A DNA stretch of 64,000 nucleotides, from positions 6,234 to 70,233 of the forward strand of contig CAZMNA010000004.1 of NCBI GenBank assembly GCA_964567555.1, in the 5' to 3' direction. Under the pieces are notes generated by a model that was not told the DNA's origin, ran no database searches, and saw nothing but the letters and a program-made list of their open reading frames with translations. Made by a program: the position numbers and the translations under genes. The DNA comes from an uncultured Candidatus Saccharibacteria bacterium (GTDB taxonomy: Bacteria > Patescibacteriota > Saccharimonadia > Saccharimonadales > UBA10212). Positions 2,662 to 26,171 of this stretch are shown here, in pieces; position 1 is the first letter of the stretch, and each line of letters opens with the position of its first letter.

Positions 2662-3669
2662 ATGGCACGGGCGCAGCTGGATGTATTAAGTGTCGGCGAC
2701 GTAGTCATAGACGATTTTATCCGTCTCTTGGATAACGAAGAGCGAGTAGAGAAACGCGATGGTGAGAGCTGGCTGGCTTTTCCGTTTGGCACCAAGATTC
2801 CATTTGACCACAGCGACGTCGTTCCCGGTGTGGGCAATGCTGCCAATGCGGCAGTGGCGTTTGCGCGCTTGGGTTTCCGTTCCGGATTGGTATCAAACGT
2901 TGGTGATGATGAGCATGGGCGCCAGATAACTTCCGCACACAAAGCAAATGATGTGGATACCCGCTTCATCCACATAAATCCTGGCAAAAAGAGCAACTAC
3001 CATTACGTACTTTGGTACAAGGCAGAGCGGACGATTTTAATCAGGCACGAAGAATATGATTACCACTGGCCGCGCTTTAGGGAGATTGATATCCCCGATT
3101 GGATTTACTTTAGCTCAGTCAGTAAACACGCACTGAATTATCATGATCAAATCGCTGACTGGCTGGACGAAAGCTCTGAAGTTAAGCTGGCCTTCCAGCC
3201 GGGCACTTTCCAAATAGAAGCGGGCGTCCACCGTCTGGCACGGATTTATAAACGCTCTGAAGTTTTGGCCGTCAACCGCGAAGAAGCCGCCACGATTTCC
3301 GGTGGCAAGCACAGTGACCTAGATGATTTGTTTGAACGCTTGCATAAACTCGGTCCTCGGATAGTCGTCATCAGCGACGGCCCGGCTGGGGCATATGCTT
3401 CTGACGGTGAAAAGAGGTTTAAGATGCCAATCTATCCTGATCCCAAAGAGCCGTATGACAGAACTGGCGCCGGTGATGCTTTTACCTCCACCTTTGTCGC
3501 CGCTATTATGAATGGCGCTGATATTGAGCAGGCGCTACTTTGGGCGCCGGTTAACTCTATGAGTGTCGTCCAAAAAGTCGGCGCTCAGGCAGGGCTTTTA
3601 ACCCAAGCCGAGGTTGAACATTATTTACGTGATGCGCCTAAATGGTACCACCCGGAGAGGATAAAATGA
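2662..3669 (+). CDS. PfkB-family carbohydrate/nucleoside kinase (ribokinase-like)
   Basis: N-terminal GVGNAANAAVAFARLG and C-terminal DRTGAGDAF (the DTxGAGDxF signature of the PfkB family). Confidence 0.8.
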   Translation: MARAQLDVLSVGDVVIDDFIRLLDNEERVEKRDGESWLAFPFGTKIPFDHSDVVPGVGNAANAAVAFARLGFRSGLVSNVGDDEHGRQITSAHKANDVDTRFIHINPGKKSNYHYVLWYKAERTILIRHEEYDYHWPRFREIDIPDWIYFSSVSKHALNYHDQIADWLDESSEVKLAFQPGTFQIEAGVHRLARIYKRSEVLAVNREEAATISGGKHSDLDDLFERLHKLGPRIVVISDGPAGAYASDGEKRFKMPIYPDPKEPYDRTGAGDAFTSTFVAAIMNGADIEQALLWAPVNSMSVVQKVGAQAGLLTQAEVEHYLRDAPKWYHPERIK

Positions 3670-4691
3670 GCCAAGCCTTGGCAGATCTATTGGGTAAGCC
3701 TAAGGAAGAAGTTGCCAAGTGGGTTGGGAACATGGAAGCAAGGACTGGCTTTAAGAGCCAGGACATCCGTGTTTTAGCAGATATGAACTTAAACTTGCGC
3801 CAAAAAATTTCCGCTTTGGGATTGGACCCAGACGACACGACTAGCGAGGAGCTCTACCATGCCTTAGTGGCGAAATACGGTAATGATTCGGAACTTATCA
3901 ACAAAGCTTTGGCCGTGGACGAGCGAGCAGACTTTGCGGCCCGCCAAAATCTAGCAATTGGTCTACTGAGTCACCTCGTACCGTCTGCCCACGGCTGGTC
4001 GCTCAAAAATACGGCAGCAAAGGCAATCATAAAGAACCTCCCACCCAAGAAAGTTATGAAGGTCTGGGGCTATCGCTCGGTTGACTCGCTACTCAAGCGT
4101 GAGGATGTTGCAGAGGTTGTGCTGGCCGCCAAGACAAGCGAGCCGACTATGTGGCAAAAAAACTTTGCTGCTGCCTCAAGGAAGGTGGGGCAGGCAGACT
4201 ACCAGCTGGCTCACGTGCGTGTTCTTAGACTCAAGGCCGAGCGCGACTACGGCGACGAATGGTGTGTAGAAAATGGTCAGCTGGCTGTGGTAGCGCTTAA
4301 CCCGGCCAAAACTCAGGATACGCCAGTTTTGTCCATGGCACTGCTGCTTTTAAAAGGAGTAGAGAGAACTAGCCTACGCTACGAGGCTAAGCCGCTAACT
4401 AAAATAAACCCGGCTCTATCTTTTTGGCAAGGCGCAGAACATTTACTGGCACGGGCCGAAGGTCCGCCTGTTTCGCTAAATATTAATGACGTTAGTCGCT
4501 CTCATGATGATGGCAACAAATTTGGAGAGCATTCCTTTGCCCACGCTGCTGACGGCTTGTTTAATGAACTCGCCAATAGCTATGAAGCTCTGGCTGCCCA
4601 AGTTTCTGGCGGAGCAGCTCAGTTGGAAGCTCAAGTTGATAAATCAATTAACCCTGTCCAAGACTTAGCGCTAGAGGCGGTTGAGGCCTAG
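3666..4691 (+). CDS. Hypothetical protein (no family recognised)
   Basis: Long ORF. ATG 3666 overlaps the kinase stop as ATGA, and the ORF ends 3 nt before the next start. No TM segments or known motifs seen. The ORF track lists an earlier start at 3642. Confidence 0.55.
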   Translation: MSQALADLLGKPKEEVAKWVGNMEARTGFKSQDIRVLADMNLNLRQKISALGLDPDDTTSEELYHALVAKYGNDSELINKALAVDERADFAARQNLAIGLLSHLVPSAHGWSLKNTAAKAIIKNLPPKKVMKVWGYRSVDSLLKREDVAEVVLAAKTSEPTMWQKNFAAASRKVGQADYQLAHVRVLRLKAERDYGDEWCVENGQLAVVALNPAKTQDTPVLSMALLLLKGVERTSLRYEAKPLTKINPALSFWQGAEHLLARAEGPPVSLNINDVSRSHDDGNKFGEHSFAHAADGLFNELANSYEALAAQVSGGAAQLEAQVDKSINPVQDLALEAVEA

Positions 4692-5282: not shown

Positions 5283-7247
5283 ATGATGGCGAAGTTCCAT
5301 CTTAAAAGTGAATACAAGCCGACGGGCGATCAGCCGGCGGCGATTGAGGCCTTGACCAAAGGTTTGAAAAAAGGGGAGAAGAGCCAAGTTCTTTTGGGCG
5401 TTACCGGCAGTGGGAAAACCTTCACCATGGCCAATGTCATCAATAACGTGCAGCGGCCTACTCTAGTACTAAGTCATAACAAAACTCTAGCCGCCCAGCT
5501 TTATAACGAATTTCGCCAATTTTTCCCAGATAACGCCGTACACTATTTTGTAAGCTACTTTGATTATTACCAGCCGGAAGCCTACATGCCGCGCACTGAC
5601 ACCTATATTGAAAAAGACAGCGACATTAATGAAGAAATTGACCGTTTGCGGCATGCTGCTACGTCGGCTCTTCTGTCCCGGAGTGACGTAATTATAGTAG
5701 CGTCTGTTTCATGCATCTACGGTATAGGCTCGGTGCAGGATTATAACGATATGGCCGTCCGTCTAAAAGTTGGCGAGCGGAGAGTACGCGACAAATTCCT
5801 TCGCCAGCTGACGGACATCCAATATCACCGAAACGATGTGGCCTTTGAGCGCGGCAACTTTCGTGTACGCGGTGATGTGGTAGATATCTACCCGGCCGGC
5901 GAGGAGTCGGCCTACCGGGCAGAGTTTTTCGGCGACGAACTAGAACGTATTACCCGGATTAATCCCCTGACCGGTGAAATTGAAGCCAGTCTTGATCGAA
6001 CTACCATTTTCCCAGGCTCCCACTACGTCACTCCGGAAGAAAAACTTAAGAAGGCTCTGTCCAAAATTCGTGCCGAAGCCGATGAGCGTTTGACCTGGTT
6101 CAAAAAAGAAAATAAATTGCTAGAAGCTCAGCGGCTAGAGCAACGTGTTAAGTTTGACCTTGAAATGCTAGAACAAACCGGCTTTGTGAAGGGGATTGAA
6201 AATTACAGCCGCTATTTGACCAACCGCGAGCCAGGCGAACAGCCGGCCACTCTTTTGGACTACTTCCCGGACGATTACTTGATGGTGGTTGACGAGTCCC
6301 ATATGAGCATCCCGCAGGTGCGCGGCATGTACCACGGCGACCGCGCCCGAAAAGAAGTACTGGTAGAGTATGGCTTCCGCTTGCCATCGGCCCTAGACAA
6401 TCGGCCACTTAACTTCACGGAATTTGAGCACCATCTCAATCAAACAGTCTATGTTTCTGCCACACCGGCGGAGTATGAGCTTTCCCGCTCCCCCGAGCCC
6501 ATCCAGCAGGTTATTAGGCCAACCGGTCTACTGGACCCGGTTATTGAAGTTCGTCCGGTCAAAGGCCAGATTGATGACTTAGTTGCGGAGATTAAGTCAT
6601 CAACCAGCAAAAGCCAGCGGGTGTTGGTGACGACGTTAACTAAACGAATGGCCGAGGATCTGGCGGAATACCTGCAGGAGCTGCAAATGAAAGTCGCTTA
6701 CATTCATTCAGAAATTGAGACGTTGGAACGGACTGACATTTTGCGTGATCTGCGGCTCGGGATTTACGATGTGCTAGTCGGGATTAACTTGCTACGCGAA
6801 GGCTTGGATTTACCGGAAGTATCACTTGTAGCCATCATTGATGCCGATAAAGAAGGTTTCCTGCGCAGTGAGCAAGCGCTTATCCAGACTGTCGGCAGGG
6901 CAGCTCGCCACGTGGAGGGCCGAGTCATTATGTACGCCGATCATATTACGGGTTCCATGCAGCGTACAATTGATGAGACTAATCGTAGACGAAAAATCCA
7001 AGAGACTTATAACAAGAAACACGATATTACTGCAACCAGCATAAGTCGTGAGATTGGCGAGATGTTGCCGCGAACGGTTCAAGAAGAGACCAAACCCAAG
7101 CTGGATCTAAAAAAGATTCCAAAAGAAGAATACAAATTCTTAATTAAAGACTTGACGTCACAGATGGATTTAGCGGCTGCCAACTTAGAATTTGAAAAGG
7201 CCGCTGAGCTGCGCGACCTTATCGCCGAAGTCAAAGCCAAACTGTAG
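5283..7247 (+). CDS. uvrB: Excinuclease ABC subunit B
   Basis: Walker A GVTGSGKT, helicase motifs, and a C-terminal UVR motif [18 protein letters not shown]. An alternative ATG lies at 5286. Confidence 0.95.
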
Positions 7248-7286
7248 ATTTTTATGCAATAGTTGTGCTAAAGTCGCATTAATATT

Positions 7287-8384
7287 ATGCCGCAACCTAA
7301 CGTTTTGCCAGTAGGACTCGGTGATGGACTGGAGTTCGGGCCAGCGCCTCATTACTCACCCGCACAACATTCACCTAGGAGAGTTCCCGACGGTGTTAAG
7401 CTCGCTCCAACCTTAAGCGAAGGTAGCCAGCAAGCTATAGATGAAGCTCGCGGGGCTATGATGCGTGCGGGCATAGATGTTGATCATAGGGCCTTTGATG
7501 TTGTTGAAGCCACGGATCAAACGGTCGAAGCAATGAATGACCTCGGACTAGTGGAAGACAGAGAAATGGCAACAGAGTTGATTGCTCAGAAAATGCTTTC
7601 CCTATACTCAGCTTTACAAAACGAAGGAGTACATTCACCCGTTTTGCCATTCATCGGTCTAACAGTCAGTGAAAAAGGTATGTCATTTAATTCTCTTTGC
7701 CAACGATATAATCTTGGCCGTAGGCAAAATCCAAGCAGAAACCCAGAAGCAGTTATGTCGGCAGACTTTAAGAAAAACTATTCAGTGGCCAACGTCAATC
7801 GTCGAACCCTTGAGGGTCAACAGATTTATCTTCCTAGCGATCCAATTTACCCACTTGCCATGATAATTGGCGATGGTAAGAATGGATTAAGCCTAGCCAA
7901 GCATGAAGTTAAGGAGCAGCAAGAATACATTGCAAACCATAAACGAAAATACGACGAGAGTCATGAACTTAGTCAGATGCTGCTTATCAACCCGGTTGAT
8001 TATCTTATTATCAGTGCGATATTGAGAGTCCGCGGAGAACGACCGCTTGATCAGGGAGGTTTCGGTTCAAAAACGCGTTTTATTACAATGCCTGGATTCA
8101 CTGCCCGCAAGGATGGCTACAACATCAATGAATCTGCCATCGCTAGCTATGAAACTACTCCCGTCTCTGCGTCCTATAAAATGTATCCAAGCTATAAAAG
8201 CAAGTGGGATGGAGTTCGACCTGCACTTGCGCTCAAGGGTGACCTAGTTAATGATGATGAGGGAGAGCGACACCGAAGGATTGATGAACTGCGAAAAGAA
8301 ATGTTGAGCGCAGCCGGCAATCTAGACTACGAGAAAGCCATTGTACTACGTGATGAAATTGGAGAGTTAGAGCGCGCGACGTAA
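7287..8384 (+). CDS. Hypothetical protein with C-terminal UVR motif
   Basis: 365-aa ORF. The last ~35 aa (IDELRKEMLSAAGNLDYEKAIVLRDEIGELE) match the UVR motif of UvrB/UvrC. The remaining ~320 aa are unrecognised. AGR arginine codons are more frequent than in the flanking core genes. Confidence 0.6.
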   Translation: MPQPNVLPVGLGDGLEFGPAPHYSPAQHSPRRVPDGVKLAPTLSEGSQQAIDEARGAMMRAGIDVDHRAFDVVEATDQTVEAMNDLGLVEDREMATELIAQKMLSLYSALQNEGVHSPVLPFIGLTVSEKGMSFNSLCQRYNLGRRQNPSRNPEAVMSADFKKNYSVANVNRRTLEGQQIYLPSDPIYPLAMIIGDGKNGLSLAKHEVKEQQEYIANHKRKYDESHELSQMLLINPVDYLIISAILRVRGERPLDQGGFGSKTRFITMPGFTARKDGYNINESAIASYETTPVSASYKMYPSYKSKWDGVRPALALKGDLVNDDEGERHRRIDELRKEMLSAAGNLDYEKAIVLRDEIGELERAT

Positions 8385-8417
8385 CCGCTGTTAATTTTGC
8401 TATACTAAAGTAAATAT

Positions 8418-8711
8418 ATGGCAAAGTTGACTAAAGACCAGGTCTTAAAATTGGCTAAACTGAGCCGATTGAAGTTAACAGATGAAGAGGTTGAGAAATT
8501 TCAAACCGAATTATCGGAGATTCTGGACTACGTTGCTCAGCTAGATAATGCCGACACTAAGGGGTTGGGACCAACATACCAAGTGACCGGCCTGAAGGAC
8601 GTTATGCGTAAGGATACGCTGGTCGATTACCAAGCGAACTCCTCCGCTATTTTAAAATTAGCTCCAGCCCTAGAAAAGAACCAGTATAAAGTTAAACGAG
8701 TCCTGAATTAG
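8418..8711 (+). CDS. gatC: Asp/Glu-tRNA amidotransferase subunit C
   Basis: 97 aa with typical GatC sequence (LAKLSRLKLTDEEVEKF...LDYV..L) in the gatCAB context. Confidence 0.9.
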   Translation: MAKLTKDQVLKLAKLSRLKLTDEEVEKFQTELSEILDYVAQLDNADTKGLGPTYQVTGLKDVMRKDTLVDYQANSSAILKLAPALEKNQYKVKRVLN

Positions 8712-8713
8712 CG

Positions 8714-10138
8714 ATGAACGTGTGGCCAAAAGTAGCCGATATTGCTGCGTCTGTAAAAAAAGGTGAGCTCAAGGCCGTGGACTTAGTGGAGAAATCTTTT
8801 AAAGCCATCAAAGCCAACAAGAGCTTCGATGCCATAATCAGCAATATAGAAGACCGCGCGCGTGAGCGCGCGCGTGAGGTGGACTCTTTGGTAGCCTCTG
8901 GCAAAGACCCGGGCAAGCTAGCCGGAGTGCCGTTCATTGCCAAAGATAACTTCTTGACCTTTAGCACCAAGACGACTGCCGCCGCAAATTACTTAAAAGG
9001 TTTTGAAGCGCCGTATCAAGCGACGGCTGTAGAGCGATTAGAGGCCGAGGGTGCAATTTGTGTCGGCAAAGGCAATCTTGATGCTTGGGCTCACGGCAGC
9101 TCTACTGAAAACAGCGACTTTTTTACGACAAAGAACCCGCATGACAAAACCCGCGTACCCGGGGGCAGCTCGGGCGGCTCAACCACTGCTGTAGCTCTTG
9201 GGCTAGTTCCGTTTGCGCTCGGCACGGATACTGGTGGCTCTATCCGCCAGCCAGCTGCTTTCTGTGGAGTAGTCGGCTATAAGCCTACCTACGGGCTAGT
9301 ATCACGCTCTGGCATTGTCGCCATGGCTTCTTCAACAGACGTAGTCGGCCCAATCTCCGCAAGCGTGGAAGATGCGGCATTGATCCTAGACGTTATGGCT
9401 GGGCGCGACGAACTGGACTCAACCACGATTAAAAAGCCAGAAAAAGGGTTCGCCCAGTTAGATTTTGACTGGCACAGCAAAAAAGTTGGCGTCATAAGAG
9501 AATATATGGATGAGGGTCTAGAACCAGGCGTTAAAAAGCAAATTACGTCAGCCATTGACCGAATTAAAAAGGTGGGTGCTACAGTGGGTGAGATTGGCCT
9601 ACCGAGCCTACCGCTGGCCTTAGCAGTCTATTACATTATTTGTCCGGCAGAGGTCTCATCTAACCTGGCGCGTTATGATGGCCAGCGATACGGGCACTCG
9701 GCGAAAGAAGCAAAGGATTTAGTGGACAGTTATGAACTGGCTCGTGAGCAAGGCTTTGGCGCCGAAGCCAAGCGCCGCATTATGATTGGAACTTACGTTT
9801 TGTCCAGCGGCTACTACGACGCTTATTATAAAAAGGCCCTACAAGTTCGTACCAAAATCATCAATGAATTTACGGAAGCTTTCAAAACATATGACCTACT
9901 AATCGGCCCCACTACTCCAACTACAGCTTTTAAAATTGGGGCCAAGACCGATGATCCACTAAAGATGTATCTCAATGATATCTTGACAGTCGCCGCCAAT
10001 GTATCGGGCAACCCATCCATCAGTGTTCCGGCAGGAAAGACCGAAGGCTTGCCGGTTGGCCTGCAGATTATTGGGCCAATGCGCGGTGATTCGGAAGTTT
10101 TGTCTGCGGCTCAAGCTTTTGAGAGGCTAAGCAAATGA
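8714..10138 (+). CDS. gatA: Asp/Glu-tRNA amidotransferase subunit A
   Basis: Amidase signature ..GGSSGGS.., ..GTDTGGSIRQPA.. Confidence 0.95.
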   Translation: MNVWPKVADIAASVKKGELKAVDLVEKSFKAIKANKSFDAIISNIEDRARERAREVDSLVASGKDPGKLAGVPFIAKDNFLTFSTKTTAAANYLKGFEAPYQATAVERLEAEGAICVGKGNLDAWAHGSSTENSDFFTTKNPHDKTRVPGGSSGGSTTAVALGLVPFALGTDTGGSIRQPAAFCGVVGYKPTYGLVSRSGIVAMASSTDVVGPISASVEDAALILDVMAGRDELDSTTIKKPEKGFAQLDFDWHSKKVGVIREYMDEGLEPGVKKQITSAIDRIKKVGATVGEIGLPSLPLALAVYYIICPAEVSSNLARYDGQRYGHSAKEAKDLVDSYELAREQGFGAEAKRRIMIGTYVLSSGYYDAYYKKALQVRTKIINEFTEAFKTYDLLIGPTTPTTAFKIGAKTDDPLKMYLNDILTVAANVSGNPSISVPAGKTEGLPVGLQIIGPMRGDSEVLSAAQAFERLSK

Positions 10139-10539
10139 TTGTCTTCTTGGTAGCAATCATTGTATTCGGCTTTCTGATGATGGTAGCTGTCGGCTTAGTG
10201 ACTAAAAAGAAACCGTACGTCCTGCACAAAGATTACTTCCACAACAAATGGATGGATCTGCTTGCCCGAGTCAAATCGCCCGAGGGCATGATACTGGCTG
10301 TCATAGATGCCGACAAGCTACTTGATGAAGCGCTCAGAAAACGTCATTTCAGGGGTAAGACTACAGGAGAGCGTCTAGTCGCTGCTCAACGGCTGCTTAC
10401 TGACAATGATGGTGTTTGGTATGCCCACAAGCTTCGCAACCGTTTGGTTCACGAACAAAACCAAAGACTCGGGAAAAAAGAAGCCGTCAATGCGCTGGAA
10501 GGCTTCAAAAAAGCTCTACATGACCTAGGGGCACTTTAA
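10135..10539 (+). CDS. Small membrane-anchored protein with Rx4H (HEPN-like) motif, embedded in gatCAB
   Basis: ATGA overlap with the gatA stop and TAATG overlap with the gatB start. N-terminal TM helix (IVFLVAIIVFGFLMMVAVGLV). The helical C-domain carries ..GKTTGERL.. and ..AHKLRNRLVHEQ.. Confidence 0.6.
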   Translation: MIVFLVAIIVFGFLMMVAVGLVTKKKPYVLHKDYFHNKWMDLLARVKSPEGMILAVIDADKLLDEALRKRHFRGKTTGERLVAAQRLLTDNDGVWYAHKLRNRLVHEQNQRLGKKEAVNALEGFKKALHDLGAL

Positions 10540-23675: not shown

Positions 23676-26171
23676 ATGATTCCAAATTCACCAGATTTTC
23701 AAGAATTTTTGTCGCACCTAACCAATAACGCGCTGCATAGCCTAAAGCACGCTGACGCTATAGCCCGCGCTAGTGGCAGTGCCTATATTGGTACAGAGCA
23801 CCTACTGCTTGGAGTACTGGCTCAAGAAGGATCCATTGCTTCTAAAATATTAGAAAATTCCGGCATTACTCTTGATCGTGCCCGGCTAGCCTTAAACCTT
23901 ACTCCAAAAACTTTAGTCATAAATATGGGCGGCAAAGGCTTATCTGAGACTGCAAAGCTCACCCTAAAGATGGCCTGGGAGATTGCCCAGGAATTCGGCC
24001 AAGATTACTGCGGCACAGAGCACGTCTTATATAGCATCTTGAGTCAAAAAAATGCCCGGGCTACCACATTACTCAAGGACATGAACGTGGACGTTGATAA
24101 CTTATCGGGCGAGGTAGAGCAGTTTCTTAATCGGCAACAGTTTGAAGCCGACGGTGCAGCGAGCAACAATCGGCGGCGCGGCAAAGCTGGCAAACAATCC
24201 GCCCTAGAACTCTTTGGTTCGGATCTGACTAAGTTAGCGCGCGACGGCAAACTGGACCCGGTAGTTGGTCGTGAACCCCAGATTAAACGGGTAATTACAA
24301 TTTTAAACCGCCGGACGAAGAACAATCCGGTATTAATCGGGGAACCAGGCGTCGGCAAGACGGCTATCGTTGAGGGCATCGCTCAGAGGATCGTAAATGA
24401 AGAAGTCCCCGACTCGCTTTTAGATAAACGAATTATTACGCTAGACCTGGCCGGCATGATTGCAGGCACTAAGTACCGCGGCGAATTTGAAGATCGTCTT
24501 AAAAAAGTCCTGGCAGAACTTGAGCAGGATAAAAATACGATAGTCTTTATTGACGAGTTGCACTTGATTGTTGGTGCTGGCGCTGCTGAAGGCTCAATGG
24601 ATGCAGGTAATATATTAAAACCCAGCCTCGCTCGCGGCAAAATCCAGCTGGTTGGTGCAACTACAACAGATGAATACTCAAAGCATGTCGAAAAGGACGC
24701 GGCCTTAGAGCGCCGATTCCAGCCTGTCCAGGTGCCCGAGGCTACACCCGCGGAGACACTCGCTATCCTAAAAGGCCTCAGAAGTCATTATGAAGAGTTC
24801 CATAATGTCAAAGCATCTGACGAAGTCTTGGAAGATACAGTCAATTTTGCTCGCCGTTACATCAATGACCGCTATATGCCCGATAAGGCAATTGACCTGC
24901 TCGATGAGACGGCAGCCTACTTGCGGGTTAACCTTGGCAAAACCCCGCCTCAACTTCGAGGGCTACAAAAAGAACTAAAGCTAATCAACAGTCGGATTGA
25001 TGACGCAGTGGATAATGAGGATTACGAGAAAGCGGCCGTAGAAAAGCAAAAGGCCAGTGTATTAAATGAAAAGATTACCAAGCTGGAAGAAACGCACAAG
25101 ACGGGCAAGGCCATTATTATGAGAAGCGATGACGTGGCAGAAACGGTTGCTCGTATGACAGGAGTCCCGGTAACCAAAGTTATTCGCTCAGAAGCAAAAT
25201 ATCTGATTAACCTTGAAAAGAATTTGGCTAAATATGTCATCGGACAAGAAGAGGCCGTGTCAATGGTTGCCAAGGCCGTTCGCCGCTCTCGTTCAGGCAT
25301 ATCCAGCGAAAAGCGTCCGATTGGTTCATTCATTTTTCTTGGACCAACCGGAGTGGGTAAGACCGAATTAGCTCGGGTACTGGCGAGGGAATTTTTCGGC
25401 TCTGAGGATGCTCTTATTAAAATTGATATGAGCGAATTCGGTGAACACCACACTGTCGCCCGTTTGGTGGGGGCACCAGCCGGCTATGTTGGCTACGATG
25501 ACGGCGGTCAGCTAACCGATAAGGTTCGCCGCCAGCCCTACTCCGTAGTGTTGTTTGATGAAATCGAAAAGGCCCATCCGGACATATTCAACATTCTTTT
25601 ACAGATTCTTGAGGACGGTCATCTTGCCGATGCCAAAGGTCGTAGGATTGATTTTTCAAATACCATAGTCATTATGACCTCTAACATTGGTGCCGATAAG
25701 CTCCAGAAGGAAGCTAGCTTTGGCTTTAGCGCCATTAATCCGGGTGCCCTGGGTAACCTAGATGAGTTGCATGAATCTAACAAGGCTAAAGTCACTGACG
25801 ATTTAAAGAAGATAATGCGCCCTGAACTTTTAAACCGGATTGATAAGGTTGTCGTCTTCCGGGCACTGTCCAAAAAAGACGTCATGAGTATACTTGATCT
25901 TCAACTGGACGAGTTGCGTTCGCGGTTAATCAAAAAAGGTATCGGTCTTGATGTTAACGAACAAGCCAAGCAATACCTACTAGAGAACGGCTACGACGCC
26001 CACAATGGTGCTAGGCCAATGCGGCGCCTTCTGCAAGAGACCGTTGAGGATGCTATTGCCGCCGGCCTTCTGGATGAGAGCTACCATAAAGGTGATGTGG
26101 TGACTGTGGCGATTAAACAGAGTCCGCGCTCAGAAAAGACAGAATTAGTTTACGCAGCGTCACCAGAATAG
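23676..26171 (+). CDS. clpC: ATP-dependent Clp protease ATP-binding subunit ClpC
   Basis: Two Clp_N repeats, two AAA+ modules ([13 protein letters not shown]; [12 protein letters not shown]) and a UVR-like linker (..[14 protein letters not shown]..). Confidence 0.9.

Follow-up and report, generated by a model that had tools for sequence, protein, structure and literature searches.

A homologue of diversity-generating retroelement variable proteins with a C-terminal UVR hairpin lies between uvrB and gatC in a Candidatus Saccharimonadales bacterium

The gene between uvrB and gatC

We analysed a stretch of 64,000 nucleotides (here called the window) of contig CAZMNA010000004.1 from an uncultured Candidatus Saccharibacteria bacterium, and within it a forward-strand gene at 7287-8384, situated between uvrB and gatC, which we refer to as the orphan. 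The gene runs from an ATG start to a TAA stop and encodes 365 amino acids, in which a body of the variable-protein family of diversity-generating retroelements (DGRs) is followed by a C-terminal UVR hairpin. Relatives of the UvrB protein placed the window in Candidatus Saccharimonadales (TM7, Patescibacteria), with the best matches being 82-83% identical. Contigs used for comparison are given numbers starting with L, and the proteins of the orphan's family numbers starting with P.

The neighbouring uvrB gene (5283-7247, forward strand) encodes a full-length protein (NCBIfam UvrB, 1062 bits) that has its own UVR motif at amino acids 620-652, corresponding to nucleotides 7140-7238. The orphan starts 39 nt past the uvrB stop codon in the same orientation, and no convincing promoter or terminator was found between the two genes. 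It ends 33 nt 5' of gatC (8418-8711, forward strand), which is followed by gatA, a conserved open reading frame (ORF) of 134 amino acids and gatB, while the order upstream is sugar kinase, 349-aa ORF, SLOG protein and uvrB. In L006, L007 and L012, which are the closest relatives (UvrB 76-83% identical), gatC is found directly after uvrB, and in L006 and L007 the flanking gene order of the window is also kept. Because only about 20-45 nt separate uvrB from gatC in these three contigs, the orphan is an insertion, which spans about 1.17 kb (7248-8417) of the window.

The orphan was not found 3' of uvrB in any of the 13 Saccharimonadales loci examined. What lies in the gap varied among other relatives: a minus-strand ORF of 367 amino acids in L009, a minus-strand ORF of 293 amino acids with a weak VWA match in L010, a peptidoglycan-binding (PG_binding_1) protein in L011, two minus-strand ORFs in L013 and two small ORFs in L037. 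These ORFs were considered as diverged orthologues of the orphan and rejected, as neither BLAST nor the hidden Markov model (HMM) of the family gave a match.

The GC content of the orphan was 0.463 compared to a gene mean of 0.487 ± 0.022, and its GC content at third codon positions (GC3) of 0.397 was the lowest among the 38 genes of the window (mean 0.493 ± 0.030). AGR codons accounted for 8 of its 25 Arg codons (0.32, compared to a mean of 0.19 ± 0.12), which is within the spread of the other genes. A first-pass annotation, made from the sequence alone, had called the gene A/T-rich with AGR arginine codons and had suspected a lineage-specific or acquired gene. The A/T-richness was confirmed by the GC3 value, but the AGR usage was not exceptional; its absence between uvrB and gatC in the closest relatives, together with the lowest GC3, bears out the lineage-specific or acquired character. 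The exact 365-aa product was recorded on five contigs (NCBI, JGI, Logan and ENA), the longest of which measures 733,923 nt.

The body of the protein and its family of DGR targets

The conserved scaffold of the orphan (amino acids 66-273, nucleotides 7482-8105) is homologous to the scaffold of DGR variable proteins from Patescibacteria. A profile of eight family members from which the orphan was excluded, consisting of six proteins with an adjacent DGR, P0005 (with contigs too short to tell) and the solo protein P0019, matched this region with 106 bits (E 1e-34 for one sequence). The scaffold was modelled by AlphaFold2 with a predicted local distance difference test score (pLDDT) of mostly 80-95. 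The preceding N-terminal region (amino acids 1-65, nucleotides 7287-7481) carries in the alignment the short GL.F.P-like motif of the family and then a lineage-specific insertion of about 40 amino acids, in which one helix (amino acids 45-60) is predicted; the pLDDT is below 50 for amino acids 1-41. No signal peptide or clear transmembrane segment was found in the orphan, and the maximum 19-residue Kyte-Doolittle mean of 1.57 is located within a segment of the conserved core.

A search with HMMER (phmmer) of amino acids 1-322 over 1.84 billion representative sequences yielded 20 hits, 18 of which were genuine relatives. The other two were the orphan's own truncated copy (P0001) and a low-complexity repeat artefact (P0003) that was discarded. 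The 18 relatives are 243-341 amino acids long, share 25-36% identity with the orphan and align to its amino acids ~64-280, with E values from 5.4e-15 to 7.5e-4. A further 12 family members were found by an alignment-based protein search, and a metagenome scan with a narrow family alignment led to two short contigs only. Common to the family are the motifs NPxDY..nAQRRExG..LLD..TxTRFxQL and a terminal GVRLSVG, and the invariant residues D91, N171, R173, L201, D238 and G309 (orphan numbering) are all kept in the orphan.

The first-pass annotation had stated that the ~320 amino acids preceding the UVR motif match nothing recognisable. This holds for curated libraries, since amino acids 1-320 had no match in Pfam, NCBIfam, PHROGs, PADLOC or PDB sequences, either as single sequence or as profile, but not for raw homologues such as the 18 relatives. 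A word-indexed search of 5.8 billion proteins with the orphan retrieved only its own truncated allele, a scan of the GTDB representative genomes retrieved no relative, and among ~15 billion proteins no orthologue was found outside the same organism. The family members likewise had no Pfam or NCBIfam assignment and gave no FGE-sulfatase or DUF1566 signal. The family consists of small, unannotated Patescibacteria proteins of ~250 amino acids that are soluble and lack a signal peptide.

Six family members (P0004, P0007, P0009, P0011, P0012 and P0016), which are all the relatives that have enough flanking DNA and an adjacent element, lie in a cassette with the order reverse transcriptase (RT, forward), family gene (forward), a spacer of ~230 nt, template repeat and bAvd (reverse). 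The RTs match RVT_1 and the Avd proteins match the NCBIfam model "diversity-generating retroelement protein Avd". The template repeat is a copy of 116-121 nt of the 3' end of the gene, and in five pairs the mismatches between variable and template repeat fell at template adenines in 27/28, 18/19, 21/22, 18/20 and 21/24 cases. Adenine-biased mismatches between the repeats are the signature of DGR mutagenic retrohoming. Because these members combine a cassette of RT, template repeat and Avd with adenine-biased mismatches, the family is a DGR target (variable protein) family, and in the DGR-bearing members the last ~40 residues are the hypermutated ligand-binding surface. The template repeat encodes an Asn-rich peptide, TA(N/D)GNSWVPNANSN..NDGVRLSV, that is strongly conserved in the family.

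In a confident model of the DGR-linked member P0009 (pLDDT 91.8, predicted template-modelling score 0.89), the secondary-structure elements follow one another as they do in the model of the orphan. The top Foldseek hits of the P0009 model in the PDB were mostly C-type-lectin-like domains, with TaqVP also listed, and none was significant (E ≥ 0.9). A C-type-lectin fold for the family may therefore be regarded as a lead from modelling rather than a result.

The orphan itself is a solo copy. No RT or Avd was found in the 64-kb window by tblastn and phmmer with the family RT and Avd, and no template repeat for nucleotides 8040-8280 was found on either strand of the window by a direct-repeat search and an adenine-tolerant scan. 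The profile alignment ends at amino acid 273, where the variable region of the family starts. The counterpart of this region in the orphan (amino acids 274-318, nucleotides 8106-8240) is diverged and about 8 amino acids longer, and ends in D-G-V-R-P-A-L-A-L where the family consensus is GVRLSVG. It keeps the D-G-V-R motif with the invariant G309 and with R311, which is present in at least 90% of the sequences, and its order of beta-strands equals that in the high-confidence P0009 model. The reading frame runs on for 47 residues past the position of the family's GVR...G motif, and counted from Leu316, the last residue of the orphan's own terminal motif, 49 residues follow, including the UVR motif. 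Unlike in DGR variable proteins, the variable region is thus not at the extreme C terminus. Altogether the counterpart is diverged and looks frozen.

Other solo copies exist in the family (P0002, P0019 and P0029), and no template repeat was found within 6-10 kb of them. P0002 is the closest relative of the orphan and adjoins Y1 transposase and DnaD-like genes. Its region (L002:392-10539) resembles a mobile element, with an IS200-type Y1 transposase, a DnaD_N/HTH_36 protein, DUF5681 and an unannotated protein of 1579 amino acids, and in L003 a divergently oriented ClpB-like AAA ATPase is found in the P0002 region. P0019 (L052:248-12512) is situated inside a cluster resembling type IV secretion or conjugation systems, with six T4SS_pilin genes, TrbL_3, PrgI, a TraC-like protein and a TraG-type ATPase. 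P0029 (L053:6001-6747) lies without RT, Avd or template repeat 5' of a GAPDH-RpiB-Rpe-transketolase operon; a gene of the Avd-related PF05635 is located 2.3 kb upstream of it. In another organism a complete DGR cassette (L043:484-2050) is found 5' of a similar GAPDH operon, and this pair suggests a recurrent loss of the DGR machinery with the target gene left behind.

In the RT genes of these DGRs, the codons for G-I-P-I-G-N are immediately preceded by a tandem repeat whose unit is not a multiple of three, namely (GCAA)n, (GTCAGAG)n or (CAGAA)n depending on the element. Such repeats were located at L044:5504-5549, L046:~106-130, L045:22-57, L008:2541-2592, L043:1-28 and L055:2-29, as well as at L039:1-49, L040:2-29 and L047-L049:1-30, and most of the contigs break at this repeat. 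L045 and L046 differ by 1 mismatch in 2136 nt and represent one element from two samples, with 9 copies (in frame) in L045 and 5 copies (out of frame) in L046, and L044 has 11 copies and a split RT. The repeat looks like a candidate slipped-strand on/off switch of hypermutation, with assembly error as the alternative. In the literature collection that was searched, no paper was found with a title or abstract on such a switch. This by-product of the analysis may matter more than the original finding.

The UVR tail and the codon 326 allele

The tail of the orphan contains a UVR domain at amino acids 330-363 (nucleotides 8274-8375). It matched Pfam PF02151 with 32.7 bits (E 5.8e-8, profile positions 2-35 of 36), compared to a curated gathering score of 21.5 bits for this model, and in the same search the UVR motif of the neighbouring UvrB reached 37.8 bits. 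AlphaFold2 predicts helices at amino acids 320-344 and 348-364 that form a hairpin, with a pLDDT of 91-92 for amino acids 331-360, and the core A-A-x-N-L-D-Y-E-K-A-x-x-L-R-D-E-I is intact. The UVR motif is therefore real and well beyond chance, as the first-pass annotation had proposed for the last ~35 residues. The parallel it had drawn to the UVR motif of the adjacent UvrB also stands, with 48% identity over 31 amino acids and both motifs above the Pfam threshold. As the NCBIfam models for UvrC, UvrB and McsA matched the tail residues weakly (McsA, NF053706, E 0.0086, weaker than UvrC and UvrB), the UVR subtype of the tail is not assignable.

The likeness to UvrB proteins also covers their helix ahead of the Pfam motif, with for example 54% identity over 35 amino acids to the UvrB of L034, and the tail is equally or more similar to the UvrB tails of distant Patescibacteria (54%) than to that of the neighbouring UvrB. 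By our own count the UvrB tail of L006 agrees with the UvrB tail of the window at 26 of 31 positions. A recent duplication of the 3' end of the adjacent uvrB was considered and rejected, because amino acid identity is only 48% and no nucleotide-level similarity was found between the orphan's UVR segment and the 3' end of uvrB. A derivation of the tail from Avd on the opposite strand was likewise rejected, as no similarity was detected. A score above the UVR threshold cannot be obtained by read-through into random DNA, and hence the fusion was built from a pre-existing UVR-coding segment. In Pfam and NCBIfam scans and in the alignment, a UVR tail was absent from all ~30 family relatives, including the 12 members added later. 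The orphan is a DGR variable-protein homologue with a unique UVR fusion that was seen in a single lineage.

A variant of the gene was found at codon 326 (GGA, Gly; nucleotides 8262-8264), at the junction of body and tail, which is a TGA stop codon in the sibling contig L005. This contig is identical to the window from 5571 to 8362 except for a G to T change at 8262. The TGA allele yields a protein of 325 amino acids, the canonical length in the family, from which the tail is removed, and would leave 9 residues after the terminal motif, inside the usual range of the family. In this genome TGA acts as a true stop, since rpoB, gatA and other genes end with it and long ORFs do not contain it; for the same reason a reading of UGA as Gly (code 25) was rejected. 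Because the full-length product is found on five contigs and the truncated product on a single contig of 2.8 kb, the fusion with the UVR tail is the main form and the truncated allele represents either a minor variant or an error. If real, this allele shows that the tail can disappear while the body stays intact.

Origin, possible function and comparison with known systems

With the family identified, the uvrB-gatC slot can be considered again. In L008, whose UvrB is 79% identical, a DGR-type RT that is 65% identical to the RT of L044 begins at the uvrB stop codon, and in L045 a cassette ends directly 5' of a gatC that is 59% identical to that of the window. These observations suggest that a DGR cassette can occupy the slot in some relatives. 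The orphan is either a remnant of such a cassette or an independent insertion into a slot of varied cargo. The low GC3 and the identities favour neither decisively; given the low identity of the orphan to its family and the cassette-free slots of the closest relatives, independent acquisition is just as likely as decay in place. In both histories a variable insertion slot accounts for the position next to uvrB, and no repair function is needed. For a solo DGR homologue in a slot of varied cargo the adjacency to uvrB therefore gives no evidence of a role in DNA repair, and we infer that it is an accident of the insertion slot.

We consider it probable that the orphan is a stranded, soluble and putatively lectin-like binding protein of the DGR type, with a surface that is now fixed and a UVR hairpin that was gained as a module for self-association or docking. 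A solo copy of a DGR variable protein lies inserted in the gap between uvrB and gatC, with no RT, Avd or template repeat alongside; its binding surface would be fixed, so that the protein may act as a binding module of fixed specificity. The joining of the body to the UVR hairpin would then allow self-association or docking. UVR hairpins serve these purposes in UvrB, UvrC, ClpC and McsA, and by this analogy such a role is the most likely one for the tail of the orphan.

Several points weigh against this reading. The arrangement uvrB-DGR-gatC was pieced together from L008 and L045, which are both broken inside the RT, and was not seen on one contig; the three closest relatives (82-83% UvrB identity) have no cassette in the slot. 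Identity to family members is only 25-31% for the orphan, compared to 60-83% between the flanking genes and their counterparts in relatives. A C-terminal extension past the variable region is atypical for DGR targets, the C-type-lectin fold rests on non-significant Foldseek hits (E ~1), the role of the UVR hairpin is purely putative, and the orphan could still be a substrate of a DGR located in another part of the ~0.7-Mb genome.

The first-pass annotation had suggested that the gene product could be a UvrB-docking accessory factor or an alternative effector. The tail would then dock on the C-terminal hairpin of UvrB in the way UvrC does, and the protein would assist nucleotide excision repair as an accessory factor, compete with UvrC or serve as an alternative effector. 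In favour of this, the UVR domain is genuine with an intact core, its similarity reaches into the helix preceding the Pfam motif in UvrB proteins, the UVR hairpins of UvrB and UvrC bind each other, and co-transcription is possible given the co-orientation, the distance of 39 nt and the lack of a convincing promoter or terminator between the genes. However, the linkage to uvrB is not conserved (0/13 Saccharimonadales loci) and the survey of its distribution found no orthologue outside the same organism. The profile searches of the body, in which nuclease or DNA-binding folds had been hoped for, found none of these (GIY-YIG, RNase H-like/EndoV-like, HhH) and instead homology to DGR variable proteins. 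In addition, no family member carries a UVR motif, one population variant is without the tail and the slot holds unrelated cargo in other relatives, and we therefore regard a docking factor of this kind as rather improbable. Even less should be expected of a domesticated DGR variable protein that is wired to excision repair by docking of its UVR tail on UvrB (or UvrC), that recruits, blocks or retargets UvrB on ligand binding, and in which the G/T difference at codon 326 toggles the coupling; we would give this a very small chance. Should the tail really dock on UvrB or UvrC, a binding module derived from a DGR would for the first time be connected with excision repair, but the current evidence makes this unlikely.

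Alternatively, the orphan could be a decaying relic on its way to a pseudogene, with the UVR fusion as a neutral product of read-through or rearrangement that has no function. In agreement with this, it has the lowest GC3 of the 38 genes, its variable-region counterpart no longer fits the family profile, RT, template repeat and Avd are lost, a nonsense allele exists and the lineage is a singleton. Decay is nevertheless unlikely in view of the intact frame of 365 codons with an identical product on five contigs from several sources, the conservation of all invariant family residues and the confidently modelled scaffold, and a 35-aa stretch above the Pfam UVR threshold cannot come from random read-through. 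DGRs are able to diversify targets in trans and some solo copies, such as P0019, have variable regions of canonical appearance, which would be in line with the orphan being actively targeted from a distance by a DGR at another locus of the genome, the tail being an extra domain 3' of a live variable region. The segment is, however, identical in the window and L005, the exact same protein is found on five contigs, the segment is unlike the family's template peptide, and nothing resembling a template repeat is present in the 64 kb, so that we consider ongoing diversification very unlikely. The hairpin could also link the protein to protein quality control of the Clp/McsA type as an adaptor or substrate tag, considering the weak match of the tail to the McsA UVR segment and the presence of a ClpC/ClpB-type ATPase in the window (23676-26171). 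The McsA match is weaker than those to UvrC and UvrB, the ATPase has no Pfam UVR match at E ≤ 0.001 and there is no genomic linkage, which makes a role in quality control the most improbable of the explanations considered.

The stranded binding protein thus remains our preferred explanation, and the repair-factor story is removed, as both the motif shared with the adjacent gene and the adjacency itself can come from insertion into a variable slot. In its place a handle is gained on an unannotated DGR target family of ~250 amino acids in candidate phyla radiation (CPR) bacteria, for which no Pfam or NCBIfam model exists and which can be recognised by the signature NPxDY...AQRRExG...LLD...TRFxQL...GVRLSVG. 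Solo copies in slots that hold a complete cassette in relatives offer direct material on the stranding, freezing and domain-fusion re-use of DGR targets.

Two further ORFs without a family match were observed among the neighbouring genes. The 134-aa ORF (10135-10539, forward strand), which has a hydrophobic N terminus, lies between gatA and gatB and overlaps both genes. Its position is occupied by a conserved ORF in L006, L007, L012 and L037 as well, and it is apparently a lineage-specific member of the gatCAB operon. The 349-aa ORF (3642-4691, forward strand) shares 28 nt with the end of the PfkB-type sugar kinase gene that precedes it. Conserved counterparts of 347 aa in L006 and 418 aa in L007 likewise lie 5' of the SLOG protein and uvrB.

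Among known systems, the orphan is closest to the DGR variable proteins found in Patescibacteria/CPR (DGR clade 2 of Roux et al. 2021, PMC8144416). In agreement with the family described here, that study reports that the targets of CPR DGRs mostly lack a recognisable domain or a membrane anchor, and that DGR targets are modular. The orphan shares with the DGR variable proteins the scaffold of amino acids 66-273, the terminal G-V-R and a similar size, likewise has no signal peptide or clear transmembrane segment, and its order of secondary-structure elements equals that of the modelled DGR-linked member. In contrast to these proteins it has no RT, Avd or template repeat in 64 kb, its variable-region counterpart is diverged and longer, it has a 40-aa N-terminal insertion, and it continues into a UVR domain that is seen in none of the ~30 relatives. 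With the C-type-lectin DGR proteins of solved structure (TaqVP, PDB 5vf4) the comparison is tentative and goes through P0009, whose hits included the C-terminal domain of Bd2740, EMS16, C-type-lectin-like domains of CD72 and the mannose receptor, and rhodocetin, with a TM-score (target) of at most 0.47. With the UVR domain PF02151 of UvrB and UvrC the orphan shares a score above the threshold, the hairpin and the core A-A-x-x-L-[DE]-[FY]-E-x-A-x-x-L-R-D, whereas in the orphan this hairpin is attached to a body that is not a repair protein.

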